From: a virus
Lineage: Duplodnaviria; Heunggongvirae; Uroviricota; Caudoviricetes
Direction: 5' to 3' (one strand)
DNA: 24,352 nt
IMG/VR virus record: IMGVR_UViG_2548876950_000008
Positions 11,123-23,423 of the stretch are shown piece by piece; the stretch's first letter is position 1, and each line of letters begins with the position of its first letter. Under the pieces are notes generated by a model. The model was not told the origin of the DNA, did no database searches, and saw nothing but the letters and a program-made list of their open reading frames with translations. A program made the translations under genes and the position numbers.

Positions 11123-11968
11123 ATGCTGGCTAAAGTCACTTTCCTGAGCTGTATAACGATGAGCGATTTTACTTTTTCTGGCTATGAATTGGCCTGCTTT
11201 GTAACACACTCCGGTCTATCCCGTAGCGCCGGGCATATCCTGTCGCAATGTGCAAATCTCGCGGCAACAACCAGTGAATACTTCATTCACAAGCCTCACC
11301 GCCTGATCGCGGCAGAAACTGGTTATAGCCAATCAACCGTCGTTCGTGCATTCCGTGAAGCTGTAAACAAAGGAATTCTGTCTGTAGAGATTGTTATCGG
11401 CGATCACCGTGAACGTCGCGCTAACCTGTACCGGTTTACACCATCATTTTTGGCCTTCGCACAACAAGCCAAAAATGCGCTGATTGAAAGCAAATTAAAG
11501 ATCTCTTCAGCGGCAACCAAGGTTAAAGCTGTTCTCGCTAAGACATTGGCTTTATTTAATTTTTTATCCACACCCCCATGTCAAAATGATACCCCCTCCC
11601 CCTGTCAGGATGACGTGGCAATAAAGAATAAGAAGTCACAAGTTAAAAAAACAAAAAGATCAGTTTCCGGCGGTGCCGGAACGACCAGACTCAAAAAATT
11701 GACTTCATGGATCGCTGAGGCAAAAGCAAAGGCTGACAATCTGCGGTTATCCAAAAAACGCGCTCAAAAACATGAGTTCAAGCAGAAAGTAGAGGCGGCA
11801 GCGCGGAAATATGCTTACCTGAAGGACAAGCGTTCTCCTGATATTGGCGGGATATCAAACTTCGATAATCTGCCGCATTGCATGACGGTAAACGAAGCTC
11901 TTAATGCGGTTTTAGCCAAAAATAAAGATAACGAACAATGGGGTATACCGGCAGGATTCAGAGGGTGA
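11123..11968 (+). CDS. repL: lytic replication initiator RepL (281 aa)
   Basis: 281-aa ORF directly after kilA under the Op53 promoter, as in P1; the gene contains an exact DnaA box in an A+T-rich stretch, consistent with an internal oriL. Confidence 0.75.
   Translation: MLAKVTFLSCITMSDFTFSGYELACFVTHSGLSRSAGHILSQCANLAATTSEYFIHKPHRLIAAETGYSQSTVVRAFREAVNKGILSVEIVIGDHRERRANLYRFTPSFLAFAQQAKNALIESKLKISSAATKVKAVLAKTLALFNFLSTPPCQNDTPSPCQDDVAIKNKKSQVKKTKRSVSGGAGTTRLKKLTSWIAEAKAKADNLRLSKKRAQKHEFKQKVEAAARKYAYLKDKRSPDIGGISNFDNLPHCMTVNEALNAVLAKNKDNEQWGIPAGFRG
11540..11600 (+). promoter_or_regulatory. candidate lytic origin (oriL) core inside repL: exact DnaA box TTATCCACA (11567-11575) in an A+T-rich tract
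   Basis: Sequence ttggctttatttaattttttatccacaccccc read directly; P1 oriL is known to lie within repL. Confidence 0.4.
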
Positions 11969-12018
11969 TAGATTGCTCTAATCTGGAGTCACCTGGCGTT
12001 TTCAGTTTGAGGTCGGAG

Positions 12019-12264
12019 ATGCAATCTGATTTTTTACAGTTAGCGATCGCTTTTGCAGGATATGTTTGTATTGGCTTCTGTGTATACATGATCAGCCGAA
12101 AAATGCTTGTCGATATCGACCGCAAAGAACAAGCAGAGGAGATCTTAGTATGGATTTTCTTTGGCGCGGTCTGGCCATTAGGGGTCATGTTTGCTGCAAC
12201 GTTTCTTCTGATGTGGATATTCACCCTTCCAGGTGATTTCTATAGAAAAAAAGCCAGACATTGA
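12019..12264 (+). CDS. small membrane protein, two predicted TM helices (81 aa from the internal ATG)
   Basis: ORF track 11938..12264; the ATG at 12019 has an SD (GAGGTCGGAG-ATG). Hydrophobic segments LAIAFAGYVCIGFCVYMI and VWIFFGAVWPLGVMFAATFLLMWIF. Confidence 0.5.
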   Translation: MQSDFLQLAIAFAGYVCIGFCVYMISRKMLVDIDRKEQAEEILVWIFFGAVWPLGVMFAATFLLMWIFTLPGDFYRKKARH

Positions 12265-12334
12265 TACAATCGCTGCGGGTGCTTGAGGCTATCTGCTTCA
12301 GGCATTACCCGAAAAGCAGATAGAAGAAAGCCCC

Positions 12335-12396
12335 AGATAACATTACGCGTCCTGCAAGACGCTTAACATTAATCTGAGGCCATATCTATGCTTAGC
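12335..12396 (-). ncRNA. sok: candidate Sok-like antisense RNA
   Basis: Minus-strand promoter TTGACC (plus 12427-12432) - 18 nt - TAATCT (plus 12403-12408) would fire antisense across the mok start/SD region. The 3' end is not defined. Confidence 0.35.
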
Positions 12397-12594
12397 ATAC
12401 GTAGATTAGCCTCTTACCGACCAAAAGGTCAAGGAGAAGCAGGCTATGAAGCAGCAAAAAGCGATGTTAATCGCTCTGATCGTCATCTGTTTAACCGTCA
12501 TTGTGACGGCACTGGTAACGAGGAAAGACCTCTGCGAGGTACGAATCCGAACCGGCCAGACGGAGGTCACTGTCTTCACAGCCTACGAATCTGA
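12388..12594 (+). CDS. mok: mok-like overlapping reading frame (68 codons)
   Basis: ORF with SD (GAGG 8 nt upstream) that begins upstream of hok and overlaps it in another frame, the arrangement of mok in hok/sok loci. Confidence 0.45.
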   Translation: MLSIRRLASYRPKGQGEAGYEAAKSDVNRSDRHLFNRHCDGTGNEERPLRGTNPNRPDGGHCLHSLRI

Positions 12595-12601
12595 AAGGTA
12601 A
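12446..12601 (+). CDS. hok: Hok/Gef-family type I toxin (51 aa)
   Basis: Translation MKQQKAMLIALIVICLTVIVTALVTRKDLCEVRIRTGQTEVTVFTAYESER is near-identical in pattern to E. coli Gef/HokC as I recall it (MKQHKAMIVALIVICITAVVAALVTRKDLCEVHIRTGQTEVAVFTAYESE). SD AAGGAG 9 nt upstream. Confidence 0.8.
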   Translation: MKQQKAMLIALIVICLTVIVTALVTRKDLCEVRIRTGQTEVTVFTAYESER

Positions 12602-12920
12602 GAGACCTGGCGGGGAGAGATCCCCGCCACTCTTCGTGTGTCAGGTATCCTCAATGCACCCTTTTCTCCCCAATAGTGTAAAACACAATGAAGTAGAAGG
12701 AGTTATTTCACATCATGCAAAGATTCAGACCATATCTCCCAATAGCCTTCGCGACATGATGACTTTCAGAAATATCTAGCTGTTAACAAAATTCCATACT
12801 TGCTTTGCTAATACCACCTAGATTATATATGGAAAAATACACCTAAAACTTAAACAAATTATATCCACAACAAACATCCATCTATTAGGATTAAAATTAA
12901 TTTAATAATAAATAATACAA

Positions 12921-12948
12921 CACCGGTTCATTTTCTAACAAACCGGTG
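12921..12948 (-). terminator. hairpin (CACCGGTT ... AACCGGTG) followed by an A/T-rich run, 3' of the MazG-like gene
   Basis: 8-bp stem with 12-nt loop, 7 nt downstream of the stop at 12956; minus-strand RNA continues UUGUAUUAUUUAUUAUU. Confidence 0.45.
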
Positions 12949-12955
12949 GGCACCA

Positions 12956-13945
12956 TTATTGGAATAACTTACTGATTACATTAAAAACATTAAGGGCGTT
13001 ACTTGCCACACTAGACATCTTAGCTGAATTTTTTTCGATTGAGTCAAGAACACTTTCGACTTCCGATAAAGTTCTTCTGCTATCTGCATCTTTTCCTGAG
13101 TCTATCGCATCTTTAATTGCAGATATAGCAGACTCTAAATTCTCCTTAAACTCACCTGTCGTCTCATCCTTCAAGAGAAGTTCTAACTCTTGTTTAAGTT
13201 TTTCCAATGATGCTCTTTTCTCATCAGTTTTACTAATCTTCCCTGAATAACTGACACAAACACATTCTCTTTTATTGCAGACAGGACAACCATTTAGATA
13301 ATAACTTTCAAACGCCTCGCCAAGATCATCATCTTTAAAAATAATCCCCCATAAAGAAAACAACCAAGCATATATATCAGCACACTCTTCATGAAGATTT
13401 TCTTTGTTGTAATTTTTATCTTCAATTGATTTAGCATAAGCCTCTTGCAACTCACCCAACTCTTCGAATAACCTGGATGAATGATAAAACCCACCAAAAG
13501 TAGACCAAATGGTTCTATTCGACGGATAGATGTCATTAATCATTCGTGGCGCATAAGGCGGAAATTGCATAGGTTTAATAGCGTTATATTTATTGAAAAG
13601 CTCATCTTTAATTCCTTTTGCGCTTCTTATTTTCTCTGGCTTTCTGTGTGTTTGAGAACAGGAACAAGGCGCCCCTAAGCAATAAGGACAGCAACTAGGA
13701 AATTTTTTATAAAATGCTTCCTGTGGTTGTATTTCAAGTTTATCACAGATTGCAAAAAGCCAAGACAATGCTTCTATATAGGTATTTTTTAATAATTCTT
13801 TATCCTGATTACCATCACGAATAAACTCACGTGTTAAATAAGCTGTTTTCCTTGTCAGATAAGAGTACATATACTCAAATGATTTTTCTTCATTTTTTTT
13901 GCTGTAAATACCTACAATAATATTGCTCATATCATTGATACGTAA
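12956..13945 (-). CDS. tandem MazG-like (all-alpha NTP pyrophosphohydrolase-like) plus zinc-ribbon protein (329 aa from the SD-backed ATG)
   Basis: ORF track 12956..14026; the SD-backed start is AAGAGGAATGTC-ATG at 13945 (MLRINDMSN...). Two internal repeats each carry a MazG-like helix (EELGELQEAYAKS ... EECADIYAWLFSLWG; ...YIEALSWLFAICDKLE) followed by a Cys cluster (CCPYCLGAPCSCS; CPVCNKRECVCVS). A+T-rich. Confidence 0.7.
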   Translation of the reverse strand, partial: LRINDMSNIIVGIYSKKNEEKSFEYMYSYLTRKTAYLTREFIRDGNQDKELLKNTYIEALSWLFAICDKLEIQPQEAFYKKFPSCCPYCLGAPCSCSQTHRKPEKIRSAKGIKDELFNKYNAIKPMQFPPYAPRMINDIYPSNRTIWSTFGGFYHSSRLFEELGELQEAYAKSIEDKNYNKENLHEECADIYAWLFSLWGIIFKDDDLGEAFESYYLNGCPVCNKRECVCVSYSGKISKTDEKRASLEKLKQELELLLKDETTGEFKENLESAISAIKDAIDSGKDADSRRTLSEVESVLDSIEKNSAKMSSVASNALNVFNVISKLFQ

Positions 13946-14196
13946 CATGACATTCCTCTTAAATAAGCCAATACTTCCTAGAACCATATATGCTTCGACA
14001 AAGATTAACGGACATCTTGCCTTCACAAACTTTGACGCTACATAAATTTAAGCATGTGCATACTAAATATTTAAGGTAGAAAAGTATAGGAGTATTTATT
14101 AATAGGTAACTGTTAGTTTACACTCACTTCATACCAGAGTATTGACAAGATGTTATTTTACTCTATTCGCTAGGCGGTGGAATGCGGTTGTATCAA

Positions 14197-14214
14197 GGGG
14201 AGGTAAACCTCCCC
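14197..14214 (-). terminator. GC hairpin (GGGGAGG-TAAA-CCTCCCC) 3' of the late structural operon
   Basis: Perfect 7-bp stem about 30 nt downstream of the 14246 stop; no strong U-run, so it may be a stabilising 3' hairpin or a weak terminator. Confidence 0.45.
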
Positions 14215-19790: not shown

Positions 19791-20792
19791 TTAAGGCTTC
19801 GGCTTTTTATCGAGGCTCTTTCTAAGGATATGCCCAATCATCCTGTCGAGTTCTTCCTGTAGCTCTTTTGAAAGTCGATTAAACTCATAAGAAAATGCAC
19901 GGCCTTTCACGCGCTTCCTTGCAAAGCGATCCTTGTCCTCAAATTTCCATAATTCAGTAACTACGGACTTATCTTTAGAACCTTTATCCGTGAGTAGTGA
20001 GGCTTCCTTTGTTATCAAGCGCAGGATTTTATTTTTAACTTCATCTTCGGCCATTTCTTCAATGGATAAGATGTCGTTTATTTCCGGGGATATGTTTTGA
20101 ATAAGCTGATCAAACTCTAAATTCTTGTTCCCCATTTCGTCGCCAACAGCACAAAGCGTTTTGTAGTCCGAAAAGGTTAATTCCGACTGCACAGGGAAAA
20201 GGGCGACTAATTCTTCCGGAGCACTCGCTGCCTGGAGAGCACGCGTGACCTTCGCCTGAGACAGCCCTTCTTTGGCTGCAATATCCTTCTGACTCATCCC
20301 ATCATTTTTCATTCGCATCAAACGCAGACCTATTTCTCGAATGCTGTGCTGCAATGCTGTCTGAACGTCTTTCGCTAAATTTTGCGCTTCCTGAACGCTG
20401 ATCTCCTGGTCCGTGACTAAAACCCGCAACCCTACGTTCTCTAAGATGGCAGAAGCTCGACGCCGGGAACCATCCAAAATTTCAATTTTCCCTGTAGCCC
20501 GTCTGACACCTATTGCAGGGTAAAATTGCTGATGCTTAATAGTGCTTCGGATACTTTTTAATGATTTTGGCGTAAGAGATGCCTGGTCACGCCCGTTGTT
20601 ATGCTGATCAACAAAGGTATCGCTTTCTACCTGGTTCGGAGGTATTACCTCTTCAATAAATGTGGCCTGGCGACCAGTTGATAACTTGAATACCTGCTCG
20701 ACTCGATCGCCAGAGGCTGAAGAACTATCAAATCCGCTTAATATTGAAGGATTAAGGGTTCGCCCAATTGTTGGTCTGTTTTTCTTTGACAT
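19791..20792 (-). CDS. parB: partition protein ParB (333 aa)
   Basis: Downstream of parA and followed by parS; 333 aa, the length I recall for P1 ParB. Confidence 0.9.
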   Translation of the reverse strand: MSKKNRPTIGRTLNPSILSGFDSSSASGDRVEQVFKLSTGRQATFIEEVIPPNQVESDTFVDQHNNGRDQASLTPKSLKSIRSTIKHQQFYPAIGVRRATGKIEILDGSRRRASAILENVGLRVLVTDQEISVQEAQNLAKDVQTALQHSIREIGLRLMRMKNDGMSQKDIAAKEGLSQAKVTRALQAASAPEELVALFPVQSELTFSDYKTLCAVGDEMGNKNLEFDQLIQNISPEINDILSIEEMAEDEVKNKILRLITKEASLLTDKGSKDKSVVTELWKFEDKDRFARKRVKGRAFSYEFNRLSKELQEELDRMIGHILRKSLDKKPKP

Positions 20793-20808: not shown

Positions 20809-22005
20809 TCAGTTAGATCTGATAAATTCAATACGGTCAAAAACTGCTTTAGCAAAATCTTCCGCGGCAATTCGCGCGTTCTTCAATGCATCAGCACTAC
20901 CAACATACGTTGCCGGGTTAGCTGAAATAACAGTGTCAAAAGACTCGCCGCAACGTTCAAAACCGTCAAGGCGAGGGAGGACGACATCGAGCATATCCCC
21001 ACCGAACACTTCTTTAGCCAGGCTATGGCAATACTTATGATCTGCCTTGTTACTCAACTTGGACATAAAACCAATGTTAGTCGCAAGCTGGCACTCGCAG
21101 CCTTCATCCGAAATGAGTTTCACCAACTCAGGAAGGCGGGCAACGTATTTAAGCGATGAGTGGAAATCGACAGTTGCTGGCGGCAGAGGTGTAAACAGTA
21201 TATTGGCCGAGGCCAAAGCATTTTTCAGGAAGGCGTCAAGGTGAGGACCACTATCAACGAGGATAAAGTCATAATCGCTCTTCAGCTTATCAATCACATT
21301 CTCTTTCAGGACAGCATGGATGTTCTGACCCGGTAGATGCTCATTGCACAGCTCTCTCCAATCGGATGCAATAAAGGCATCGTCAATCGACGCAGGCATA
21401 ACGTCAACCCCAGGTACAACAGAAGGAACAATAAACTCCTCTAACAGCTCTTCACGGCTTACATTCTGCAACATAGCCTGTGCAGATGTTGCGTTTACGA
21501 TACCAATAGAGTGTTTATGGCTTAAAAACATCGTTGCTGAAGATTGCGGATCAAGGTCAATAACCAGAATCCTTAAATCTTCCATCAGAAGATGAGGGTG
21601 GGCACGCATTGCATGCGCCAGAGAAACCGTCGATACAGTTTTTGACACACCGCCTTTAAGATTGGAGATGAAAATCACATACGCTTCGCTGTAGCGATCC
21701 CGGTATTTTGGCACTCCGCGATGTTCATATATGTCAATGATGTTCTGAATTGACATCGCATATTTCATTGAAGAGCCAGCAGGGCGTTTATCGAAAACAT
21801 AACCCTTTTCTTCCATTTCACTTACGGCATAGTCAACGTTCGCTCGAGTCAATAGAGGCAATTTTGCCAGTGCCGCTTTCGCATAGACCTGGTAAAACTC
21901 GTTCGCGTGTAGCTCATCCTTTTGCAACTGTACTTGTTCAGTCAGAACATTGAGCATTCTGTTTGCTCTTTGAGCAACCTTGTGAAGCTGGCTGGAATCA
22001 CTCAT
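20809..22005 (-). CDS. parA: partition ATPase ParA, type Ia with N-terminal DNA-binding extension (398 aa)
   Basis: Deviant Walker A motif (FISNLKGGVSKTVSTVSLA); 398 aa as I recall for P1 ParA; sits between repA/incA and parB. Confidence 0.9.
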   Translation of the reverse strand: MSDSSQLHKVAQRANRMLNVLTEQVQLQKDELHANEFYQVYAKAALAKLPLLTRANVDYAVSEMEEKGYVFDKRPAGSSMKYAMSIQNIIDIYEHRGVPKYRDRYSEAYVIFISNLKGGVSKTVSTVSLAHAMRAHPHLLMEDLRILVIDLDPQSSATMFLSHKHSIGIVNATSAQAMLQNVSREELLEEFIVPSVVPGVDVMPASIDDAFIASDWRELCNEHLPGQNIHAVLKENVIDKLKSDYDFILVDSGPHLDAFLKNALASANILFTPLPPATVDFHSSLKYVARLPELVKLISDEGCECQLATNIGFMSKLSNKADHKYCHSLAKEVFGGDMLDVVLPRLDGFERCGESFDTVISANPATYVGSADALKNARIAAEDFAKAVFDRIEFIRSN

Positions 22006-22562: not shown

Positions 22563-23423
22563 TTATTCGGGAAGTTTCAGCTTTGGATTGCGAGAATGGA
22601 CGATTACAAAACTTTCCCGGCCTTTCTTCTCAATTGAACAGTCGAGATAACCGATTGTTTTAAGCTGTTCTATCGCTTTCTTAATGATACGGTTTTGCTC
22701 GCCAACAGCTGACTGCAAAGCCAGGCGCTCACGGATTCGCGCGAACGATAGCGGCAACGGGTTCTGCGGAAGGCTTTCGATGAAAGTGTAAATGGCTTGT
22801 GCAGCTTCTTTCTTCGGAAGGGCACGCAAGGCGTGGTGTTGCAACAGAACGCGATAATCAAGCTGGAACAGCTCCCACAGCTTCGAATCAGCCTCCAGCT
22901 CTATCAGATCAAGGTCAGCATCAAAACGCCCGACCTTAAGCAGACCAGTCTGATAGCCGCCTTTAGCATCTTTTCCGCGCTTAAAAGCGATACCCTTGTT
23001 ACGCAAGCGTCCAAGTGATTCATGAATGGTTAAACGCAGTTTCGCATCCAGACGTTTTGAGGGGAAACCACAGGCTTTAGCGAATTCCTGAAACGATAAC
23101 TGGATGGTGTTTGAGGACAAGCCGTATTTGCTGAACGCGTAGATGACACCGATCCACGTTTTGAAATCAGTATCCATATCGAGTCGAGGACCGGTGATTT
23201 TAATATCATCGTAACCCTCGGCTTTAGCTATCTCCAGCTGGGAAAACGCTTTGGTGGCATCAATCTCTTTACTTTCTCCTTTGCTCTTTGATGGCTTCGG
23301 CACGAATACCCCCAAGCGCATCAACGCTACAGGCTGCACAGTGTTGTTTGAATTAACTGTTAGTTCTTTTGCCTTACTTTCAATGTCTGCGTAAAGAATA
23401 TCGGAGATAAAAGATTGATTCAT
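22563..23423 (-). CDS. repA: plasmid replication initiator RepA (286 aa)
   Basis: Flanked by iteron arrays on both sides; 286 aa as I recall for P1 RepA. Confidence 0.9.
   Translation of the reverse strand: MNQSFISDILYADIESKAKELTVNSNNTVQPVALMRLGVFVPKPSKSKGESKEIDATKAFSQLEIAKAEGYDDIKITGPRLDMDTDFKTWIGVIYAFSKYGLSSNTIQLSFQEFAKACGFPSKRLDAKLRLTIHESLGRLRNKGIAFKRGKDAKGGYQTGLLKVGRFDADLDLIELEADSKLWELFQLDYRVLLQHHALRALPKKEAAQAIYTFIESLPQNPLPLSFARIRERLALQSAVGEQNRIIKKAIEQLKTIGYLDCSIEKKGRESFVIVHSRNPKLKLPE

Follow-up and report, generated by a model that had tools for sequence, protein, structure and literature searches.

A very probably intact hok/mok/sok type I toxin–antitoxin cassette of the hokD/hokW subgroup in variable region 5 of a P1-like phage-plasmid

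The DNA analysed here, a stretch of 24,352 nucleotides (nt) from a tailed phage of the class Caudoviricetes (IMG/VR record IMGVR_UViG_2548876950_000008; hereafter the window), carries downstream of repL a gene for a 51-amino-acid (aa) toxin, hok, an overlapping frame, mok, and on the opposite strand the promoter and predicted antisense RNA of a sok gene, all of them enclosed between the mutually complementary elements tac and fbi (Table 1). Every sequence and structural element of the system was found to be present, uninterrupted and conserved, and we consider it highly likely that the locus is an intact hok/mok/sok type I toxin–antitoxin cassette of the hokD/hokW subgroup, lying in variable region 5 of a P1-like phage-plasmid. 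A preliminary description of this DNA had already proposed a complete hok/mok/sok locus downstream of repL, and the toxin family, the mok frame, the homology of sok, the tac–fbi pairing and a match to an Rfam model all bear this out. The limits that it gave (12290–12640) are too narrow, however, and cut off both ends. The part common to other hok loci is 12265–12661, over which the locus of the unrelated phage 933W is 87.6% identical in DNA, and the mobile unit therefore extends from the −10 element of the hok promoter to the last base of fbi. The functional unit is slightly larger, about 12243–12665, and runs from the whole of the hok promoter through the 3′ fbi element.

Table 1 Features of the hok/mok/sok cassette and of other genes in the window
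Feature	Position	Strand	Description and basis
hok mRNA promoter	12243..12270	+	TAGAAA, 16-nt spacer, TACAAT, TG extended −10; promoter scan
tac element, inferred 5′ end of hok mRNA	12277..12289	+	GGGUGCUUGAGGC; pairs with fbi (full-length form) or ucb (activated form)
5′ hairpin inside the tac–ucb helix	12289..12325	+	CUAUCUGCUU...AAGCAGAUAG; Rfam consensus, minimum free energy (MFE) fold of the 5′ domain, inverted repeat I1
ucb-like element	12328..12334	+	AAGCCCC; pairs with tac in the 3′-truncated (active) form; Rfam consensus structure
Sok-like antisense RNA (predicted)	~12396..12326	−	~71 nt, ends ± a few nt; mapped from the annotated 71-nt sokW of 933W
mok	12388–12594	+	68 codons; overlaps hok in a different frame; list of open reading frames (ORFs)
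sok promoter	12403..12432	−	−35 TTGACC (12432..12427), 18-nt spacer, −10 TAATCT (12408..12403); read from the sequence
hok	12446–12601	+	51-aa toxin gene; Shine–Dalgarno (SD) sequence AAGGAG at 12431–12436
3′ stem-loop	12609..12628	+	GGCGGGGAGAGAUCCCCGCC; MFE folds
fbi (fold-back inhibition) element	12649..12661	+	CCUCAAUGCACCC; complementary to the 5′ end of the hok mRNA; forms the 3′ limit of the cassette
Small ORF	12019–12264 or 11938–12264	+	81 aa (RefSeq annotation) or 108 aa (first ATG); between the P1 breakpoint and hok
MazG-like gene	12956–14026	−	356-aa ORF (330 aa annotated); RefSeq 'MazG-like family protein'
ParB	19791–20792	−	Plasmid maintenance gene
ParA	20809–22005	−	Plasmid maintenance gene
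RepA	22563–23423	−	Rep3-type; plasmid maintenance gene

The 51-aa Gef/Hok-like reading frame of the preliminary description is present where it had been placed, and its product matches the Pfam profile PF01848 (HOK_GEF) over all 42 of its positions (1–42; E 2.4e-22, 78.7 bits against a cutoff of 22) as well as PHROG 251, 'MokW-like host killing' (E 4.9e-32). Alignment to members of the Hok/Gef family, which had been suggested as a check, gives 94% identity to HokD/RelF of Escherichia coli K-12 (48 of 51 residues) and 92% to HokW of 933W. The RefSeq protein 'type I toxin-antitoxin system toxin HokD' of the IncY plasmid NZ_CP123268 is 100% identical, and the name HokD is used on account of this identity and not of the NCBIfam hidden Markov models for Hok, which match below their curated cutoffs (49.5 against 73 bits). 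The defence-system models of PADLOC gave no match for Hok, for the small ORF upstream of it (ORF81) or for the MazG-like neighbour, and an assignment to a defence system is therefore unsupported.

The start of the hok mRNA was placed at 12277 because the predicted promoter ends at 12270 and because this base is also position 1 of the Rfam model, so that a 5′ end at about 12277 is likely. Only the −10 element of this promoter falls within the region conserved among cassettes, where other copies have TAGAAT. Three matches in total were returned by an Rfam scan of the whole window, and one of them, to RF01794 'sok', covers 12277–12451 on the plus strand (114.9 bits against a gathering score of 59; E 7.7e-26; model positions 1–157 of 157). 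Since it lies on the plus strand and ends at the hok AUG, the model describes the leader of the hok mRNA, which holds the complement of Sok, and not the antisense RNA itself. Pipelines that use RF01794 would accordingly give the name 'sok' to the hok leader and mistake both its strand and its extent, the antisense gene being the minus-strand one of Table 1.

RNA folding for tac/fbi-type pairing, which had likewise been suggested, places the two ends of the molecule together: in the MFE fold of the full-length transcript (12277–12665; −157.7 kcal/mol, z-score −8.9) the first 12 nt (GGGUGCUUGAGG, 12277–12288) pair with 12649–12661, the clamp by which hok mRNAs are defined, and the isolated tac–fbi duplex has an energy of −19.7 kcal/mol. 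When the cassette is aligned with five copies that are 88–92% identical to it, from 933W, Rac (of strain 442/2), vB_Apl-pPE4, Tritos and Evi, none of the six cassettes departs from any of the 12 pairs, and it is therefore conservation that supports this helix and not covariation. The 5′ domain on its own (12277–12336) has as its MFE fold, at −26.9 kcal/mol, the tac–ucb conformation of the Rfam consensus without a mismatch in the tac–ucb helix, while the first 34 nt alone are predicted to form a hairpin of −18.2 kcal/mol. This last fold is consistent with the metastable hairpin of the nascent transcript that is reportedly a feature of the hok family, from work on R1 in the Gerdes laboratory. 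By analogy with R1, the 3′ stem-loop would protect the end of the mRNA once it has been processed into a form that can be translated.

The antisense side of the locus was identified largely through its relatives. By pattern alone the sok promoter is no better than chance, but it aligns column for column with the sokW promoter of 933W and Sp5, TTGCCT-17-TAACCT, its TAATCT lying over TAACCT and its spacer being 18 nt as against 17. In the hokW-sokW system a 'pro-less' construct, in which the primer YO-421 replaces the −10 stretch (TAGGTTA to CCGGCTC), lost antitoxin activity (PMC8621323). We accept the promoter of the window because it is homologous in position to this experimentally mutated one; the convergent minus-strand TTGACC-18-TAATCT had been read correctly in the preliminary description, and what supports it is homology to the sokW promoter and not a promoter scan. 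The GenBank record of 933W annotates sokW (71 nt) along with mokW and hokW, and transfer of the sokW coordinates by alignment predicts an antisense RNA of about 71 nt here. Coverage of the mok start region, as had been proposed for the antisense transcript, is thus upheld by homology, while the proposed length of roughly 65 nt gives way to about 71 nt.

In its predicted fold (−29.1 kcal/mol, z-score −4.8) the Sok RNA begins with a single-stranded 5′ tail of 15 nt (12396..12382), complementary to the mok start region, followed by a hairpin of 52 nt (12381..12330) and a U-rich tail, CUUUCUUCU. The counterpart of the 5′ tail, the 15-nt Sok-recognition stretch around the mok ATG (12382–12396; about columns 143–157 of the alignment), is the most diverged part of the cassette, with differences at 2–6 of its 15 positions (13–40%) among the six copies, in which the Sok hairpin differs at 1–3 of 52 positions (2–6%) and the hok coding sequence at 8–11 of 156. 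The recognition stretch may therefore be a specificity determinant that limits cross-talk among co-resident hok/sok loci.

The overlapping mok-like frame is likewise present as previously described. Its SD sequence, GAGG at 12376–12379, lies 8 nt upstream of the mok ATG, and both fall within the Sok-complementary region; the ATG is kept in all six cassettes and aligns with annotated mok or mokW starts in two records. The spacing to hok divides the copies into two subtypes. In the window and in phage Rac of strain 442/2 the mok ATG stands 58 nt from the hok ATG and out of frame with it, mok being a separate frame as in R1, whereas in 933W, Tritos, Evi and pPE4 a 1-nt deletion reduces the distance to 57 nt and brings the upstream ATG into frame, and the annotated 'MokW' is therefore a 70-aa, N-terminally extended Hok. 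The same 1-nt indel also alters a small hairpin over the hok SD sequence, GACC/GGUC in one form and GCC/GGC in the other. One member of the alignment, vB_Apl-pPE4 (PP818812.1, 13219–13618), is recorded as a phage of Actinobacillus pleuropneumoniae even though its hok cassette is 89% identical to the E. coli-type copy of the window; the host assignment is odd for so close a match, and the record could represent an E. coli prophage or be mislabelled.

Covariation among the six cassettes was assessed by counting pairs on the window's own MFE structure. Standard pairs occupy 93.6% of cells, compared with 36–43% when the partners are slid by 1–3 columns, and seven pairs change on both sides, against 2.5 ± 1.1 in shuffles (seven being reached in 1 of 500) and 0–1 in the slid controls. 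These compensatory changes sit in the 5′ hairpin (one C-G to U-A), in the 3′ stem-loop at 12609–12628 (two) and in a helix formed at long range between the mok-start/Sok-target region and the bases immediately 5′ of fbi. Against the identification of the locus as an intact cassette it must be said that the structure was taken from one of the aligned sequences and that only six close relatives were compared, which biases the counts in favour of structure. A generic sigma-70 scan, moreover, did not call the sok promoter, whose −10 element fits the consensus at 3 of 6 positions, and the MFE fold of the whole 3′-truncated mRNA (12277–12631) took the 5′ metastable hairpin instead of the tac–ucb helix; thermodynamic folding cannot settle the folding pathway of the hok mRNA. 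Finally, the function proposed for this copy is transferred wholly from relatives with about 88% DNA identity (hokW) or much less (R1).

The closest of these relatives is the hokW-mokW-sokW locus of the Stx2 phages Sp5 (VT2-Sakai) and 933W, which matches the cassette from end to end. It has the same tac and fbi, three differences in the 52 positions of the Sok hairpin, the sok promoter in the same position and a toxin of the same length, while 5 of the 15 positions of the Sok-recognition stretch differ between 933W and the window. Both cassettes are borne by temperate phages, although those of 933W and Sp5 belong to integrated lambdoid prophages and that of the window to a plasmid prophage. 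The hok/mok/sok (parB) system of R1, which like the window copy lies on a low-copy plasmid replicon, shares its weak hok promoter, tac and fbi, ucb, an overlapping out-of-frame mok and a sok gene convergent over the mok start, this comparison being one with the Rfam model, a family built around the R1 system, and with the literature on R1. Processing, half-lives and translational coupling have been shown in R1 and are only assumed for the hokD/hokW subgroup, and HokW is 44% identical to the Hok protein of R1 (PMC8621323). In K-12 the hokD (relF) gene of the Qin prophage, the source of the RefSeq name 'HokD', is 91% identical in DNA over 12432–12661, including the 3′ stem-loop and fbi, but is without everything upstream of 12432, that is, the hok promoter, tac, ucb, sok and the mok start, and relE abuts it instead. 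The copy in the window is thus the complete form of the K-12 hokD locus.

From R1 hok/sok and Sp5 hokW-sokW the following mechanism can be transferred by homology, and the expression, RNA half-lives, toxicity and biological role of the present copy would be expected to follow by analogy. A weak promoter would give rise to a stable hok mRNA of about 385–390 nt, in which tac at the 5′ end is clamped to fbi at the 3′ end, so that the molecule can neither be translated nor bind Sok. Slow trimming of the 3′ end would strip off fbi and allow the 5′ end to refold onto ucb, exposing the mok start and the Sok target. In cells that retain the plasmid, the convergent promoter would supply the unstable Sok RNA of about 71 nt, which would pair with the mok start region and block translation of mok and hence the coupled translation of hok, and the duplex would be degraded. 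Once the supply of Sok ends, whether by loss of the plasmid or by a shut-off of transcription, the activated mRNA would be translated and the 51-aa Hok peptide would enter the inner membrane and kill the cell. A stable hok mRNA, a labile Sok, 3′ processing and killing upon depletion of Sok have reportedly been shown for R1. For hokW-sokW these properties have been shown in part; HokW is toxic and found at the inner membrane, and sokW, transcribed from its own promoter, is the antitoxin, with partial contributions of RNase III and Hfq (PMC8621323).

The P1-like identity of the window is confirmed by the immI elements of P1, namely the C4 antisense RNA (RF01695, 68.4 bits) and its a1/b1 target sites (RF03163, 56 bits), at 8613–8665 and 8734–8819; the window also carries kilA and repL. 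Reference P1 is without the cassette. Homology to P1 ends at 11982 and restarts at 14213, and between these points P1 has rlfA-rlfB-pmgF, known as 'highly variable region 5' from a comparison of P1-like phage-plasmids (PMC9603915), whereas the window has three modules, a small ORF, the hok cassette and a low-GC segment. The cassette consequently lies in variable region 5, between repL and bplB, directly downstream of kilA-repL, the lytic operon controlled by C1, with which it shares its orientation; two terminator-like hairpins (12172–12187 and 12221–12236) are found between repL and hok. The left breakpoint (11972–11983 in the window) falls inside the C1 operator Op55/Orlf of P1, which reads ATTGCTCTAATTATAAC in P1 and ATTGCTCTAATC... 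here; the operator is truncated, its core ATTGCTCTAAT being kept and its 3′ third replaced. Control by C1 of the downstream ORF, and of read-through into hok, hinges on whether C1 binds at this truncated site. Transposition was considered as the source of the cassette and set aside, no flanking direct or inverted repeats or insertion sequence (IS) elements having been found at it, and exchange of modules by recombination, with breakpoints at 11982, 12265, 12661/12664 and 14213, is more likely.

The absence of the cassette from reference P1 agrees with its earlier description as cargo, yet it is not an unusual cargo, the hok allele being the common one at variable region 5. In PLSDB 515 plasmids match repL, 604 match 12200–12700, of which 417 cover at least 80% of that span, which requires some P1-type flank, and 302 cover at least 80% of the repL–ORF–hok junction (11850–12450). 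The hok allele, and not the rlfAB of P1, is thus the usual occupant of the site, in roughly 300–420 of about 515 repL plasmids, fractions that are approximate because the sets of records were not intersected. Most sequenced P1-like phage-plasmids therefore carry a second, RNA-based addiction or killing module which the textbook P1 is without, and which is relevant to the stability and curing of elements that often carry resistance genes. The locus itself is already known, in that its toxin is annotated in hundreds of RefSeq records, its family is among the best studied of the type I systems and a close relative has been characterised. A search of the accessible literature found no paper on hok/sok in P1-like phage-plasmids, the mentions of hok there concerning other plasmids; its presence in them is annotated in database records only, which is a gap in commentary and not a discovery. 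What the window offers is a clean and complete reference copy of the hokD/hokW type, with promoter, tac, ucb, sok, mok, hok and fbi mapped, where automated annotation marks only the 51-aa ORF and routinely overlooks sok and how far the locus really extends. Beyond correct annotation the significance is small.

As to its biological role, the cassette most likely serves the addiction of a single-copy plasmid prophage by post-segregational killing. Such a role is to be expected of a plasmid prophage that is kept at single copy and has par and repA close by; the par system with which the preliminary description had paired the locus is indeed in the window. Addiction would be redundant with par and probably with phd-doc, the addiction module of the P1 plasmid prophage, which lies outside this 24-kb window. 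The latter is a functional analogue with the same presumed purpose, the killing or arrest of cured segregants, but it is a type II protein–protein system, encoded elsewhere in the genome and related to hok/sok neither in sequence nor in mechanism; it is highly conserved in P1-like phage-plasmids (PMC9603915). Some observations speak against addiction. Of 5,426 complete E. coli genomes, 4,739 hold sequences that are at least 80% identical to the cassette, at a median of two places per positive genome (a copy at 99% identity or more is found in 360 records), and Sok RNAs from such chromosomal loci might cross-neutralise the cassette and blunt post-segregational killing. In addition, the only direct study of a close relative, hokW-sokW, found a role in lysis and phage release and not in plasmid stabilisation (PMC8621323).

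The same machinery could instead act in the lytic cycle, Sok being lost on induction and early damage to the membrane by Hok giving faster lysis and more phage. This we rank second, as an unlikely explanation that nevertheless has experimental precedent in the locus to which the cassette is 87.6% identical: in Sp5, sokW RNA vanishes after mitomycin C, HokW appears about 1 h before the endolysin, and in mutants deleted for hokW-sokW growth arrest comes about 40 min later and half as much phage is released (PMC8621323). The position of the cassette would suit such a role, since it is co-oriented downstream of C1-controlled kilA-repL and adjoins the truncated Op55, so that read-through could collide with the sok promoter, though the two terminator-like hairpins intervene. 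The precedent, moreover, comes from Sp5, an integrated lambdoid prophage, while for a plasmid kept at single copy the benefit of addiction is plain. P1 also has its own timing system of holin, antiholin and endolysin, which counts against a need for Hok, and a lytic role would in any case be compatible with post-segregational killing. Third comes phage exclusion by abortive infection, in which transcription in the host is stopped by an invader and the ensuing decay of Sok lets Hok kill the cell before the phage has matured. R1 hok/sok on a high-copy plasmid reportedly lowered the plating efficiency of T4 by 42% and the size of its plaques by about 85%, an effect that is weak and depended on high copy number. 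The variable region beside a low-GC MazG-like gene is a typical site of prophage defence genes, but with no PADLOC match for Hok or the neighbouring gene we regard exclusion as improbable. Last, and hardly credible, is an inert passenger, a decayed hok locus like several chromosomal copies of K-12 that hitch-hikes in a recombination hotspot. Chromosomal relatives are often truncated, K-12 hokD keeping only the part from 12432 on, the −10 element of sok fits the consensus poorly, and near-identity over hundreds of plasmids could reflect recent spread and not selection. A relic is rejected, however, on the grounds that all elements of the R1 paradigm are present and uninterrupted, that structure has been kept by compensatory changes and that the Hok frame is intact, 92–94% identical to active relatives and free of IS elements or frameshifts.

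Addiction thus remains our preferred account of the role of the cassette, and we add a more speculative proposal, quite unlikely as a whole, that the details of its position and sequence are adaptive and not incidental. Induction of the prophage could silence the convergent sok promoter by read-through from kilA-repL and trigger Hok as an early lysis helper, which, if true, would fill in the trigger that is still lacking from the account of the hokW-sokW effect in Sp5. The fast divergence of the 15-nt recognition stretch may in turn reflect selection to escape cross-neutralisation, or 'anti-addiction', by the chromosomal hok/sok loci of most E. coli.

To the right of the cassette lies the low-GC segment (12665–14212; GC content 0.31–0.36, compared with about 0.47 in the flanks) with the MazG-like gene, which neither reference P1 nor the P1-like phage MH422554 possesses. 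In the latter, from infant faeces, the hok cassette extends to 12664 and is followed almost directly by bplB, and the MazG-like segment is therefore a separate module. Its protein has no Pfam or PADLOC match and a weak PHROG match to a nucleoside triphosphate pyrophosphohydrolase (E 4.3e-6), and could act in defence or counter-defence. On the left, the product of the small ORF, which appears hydrophobic by eye, has no Pfam match and matches PHROG 3772, of unknown function (E 6.8e-54); its TGA stop codon (12262–12264) overlaps the TG of the extended −10 element of the hok promoter.

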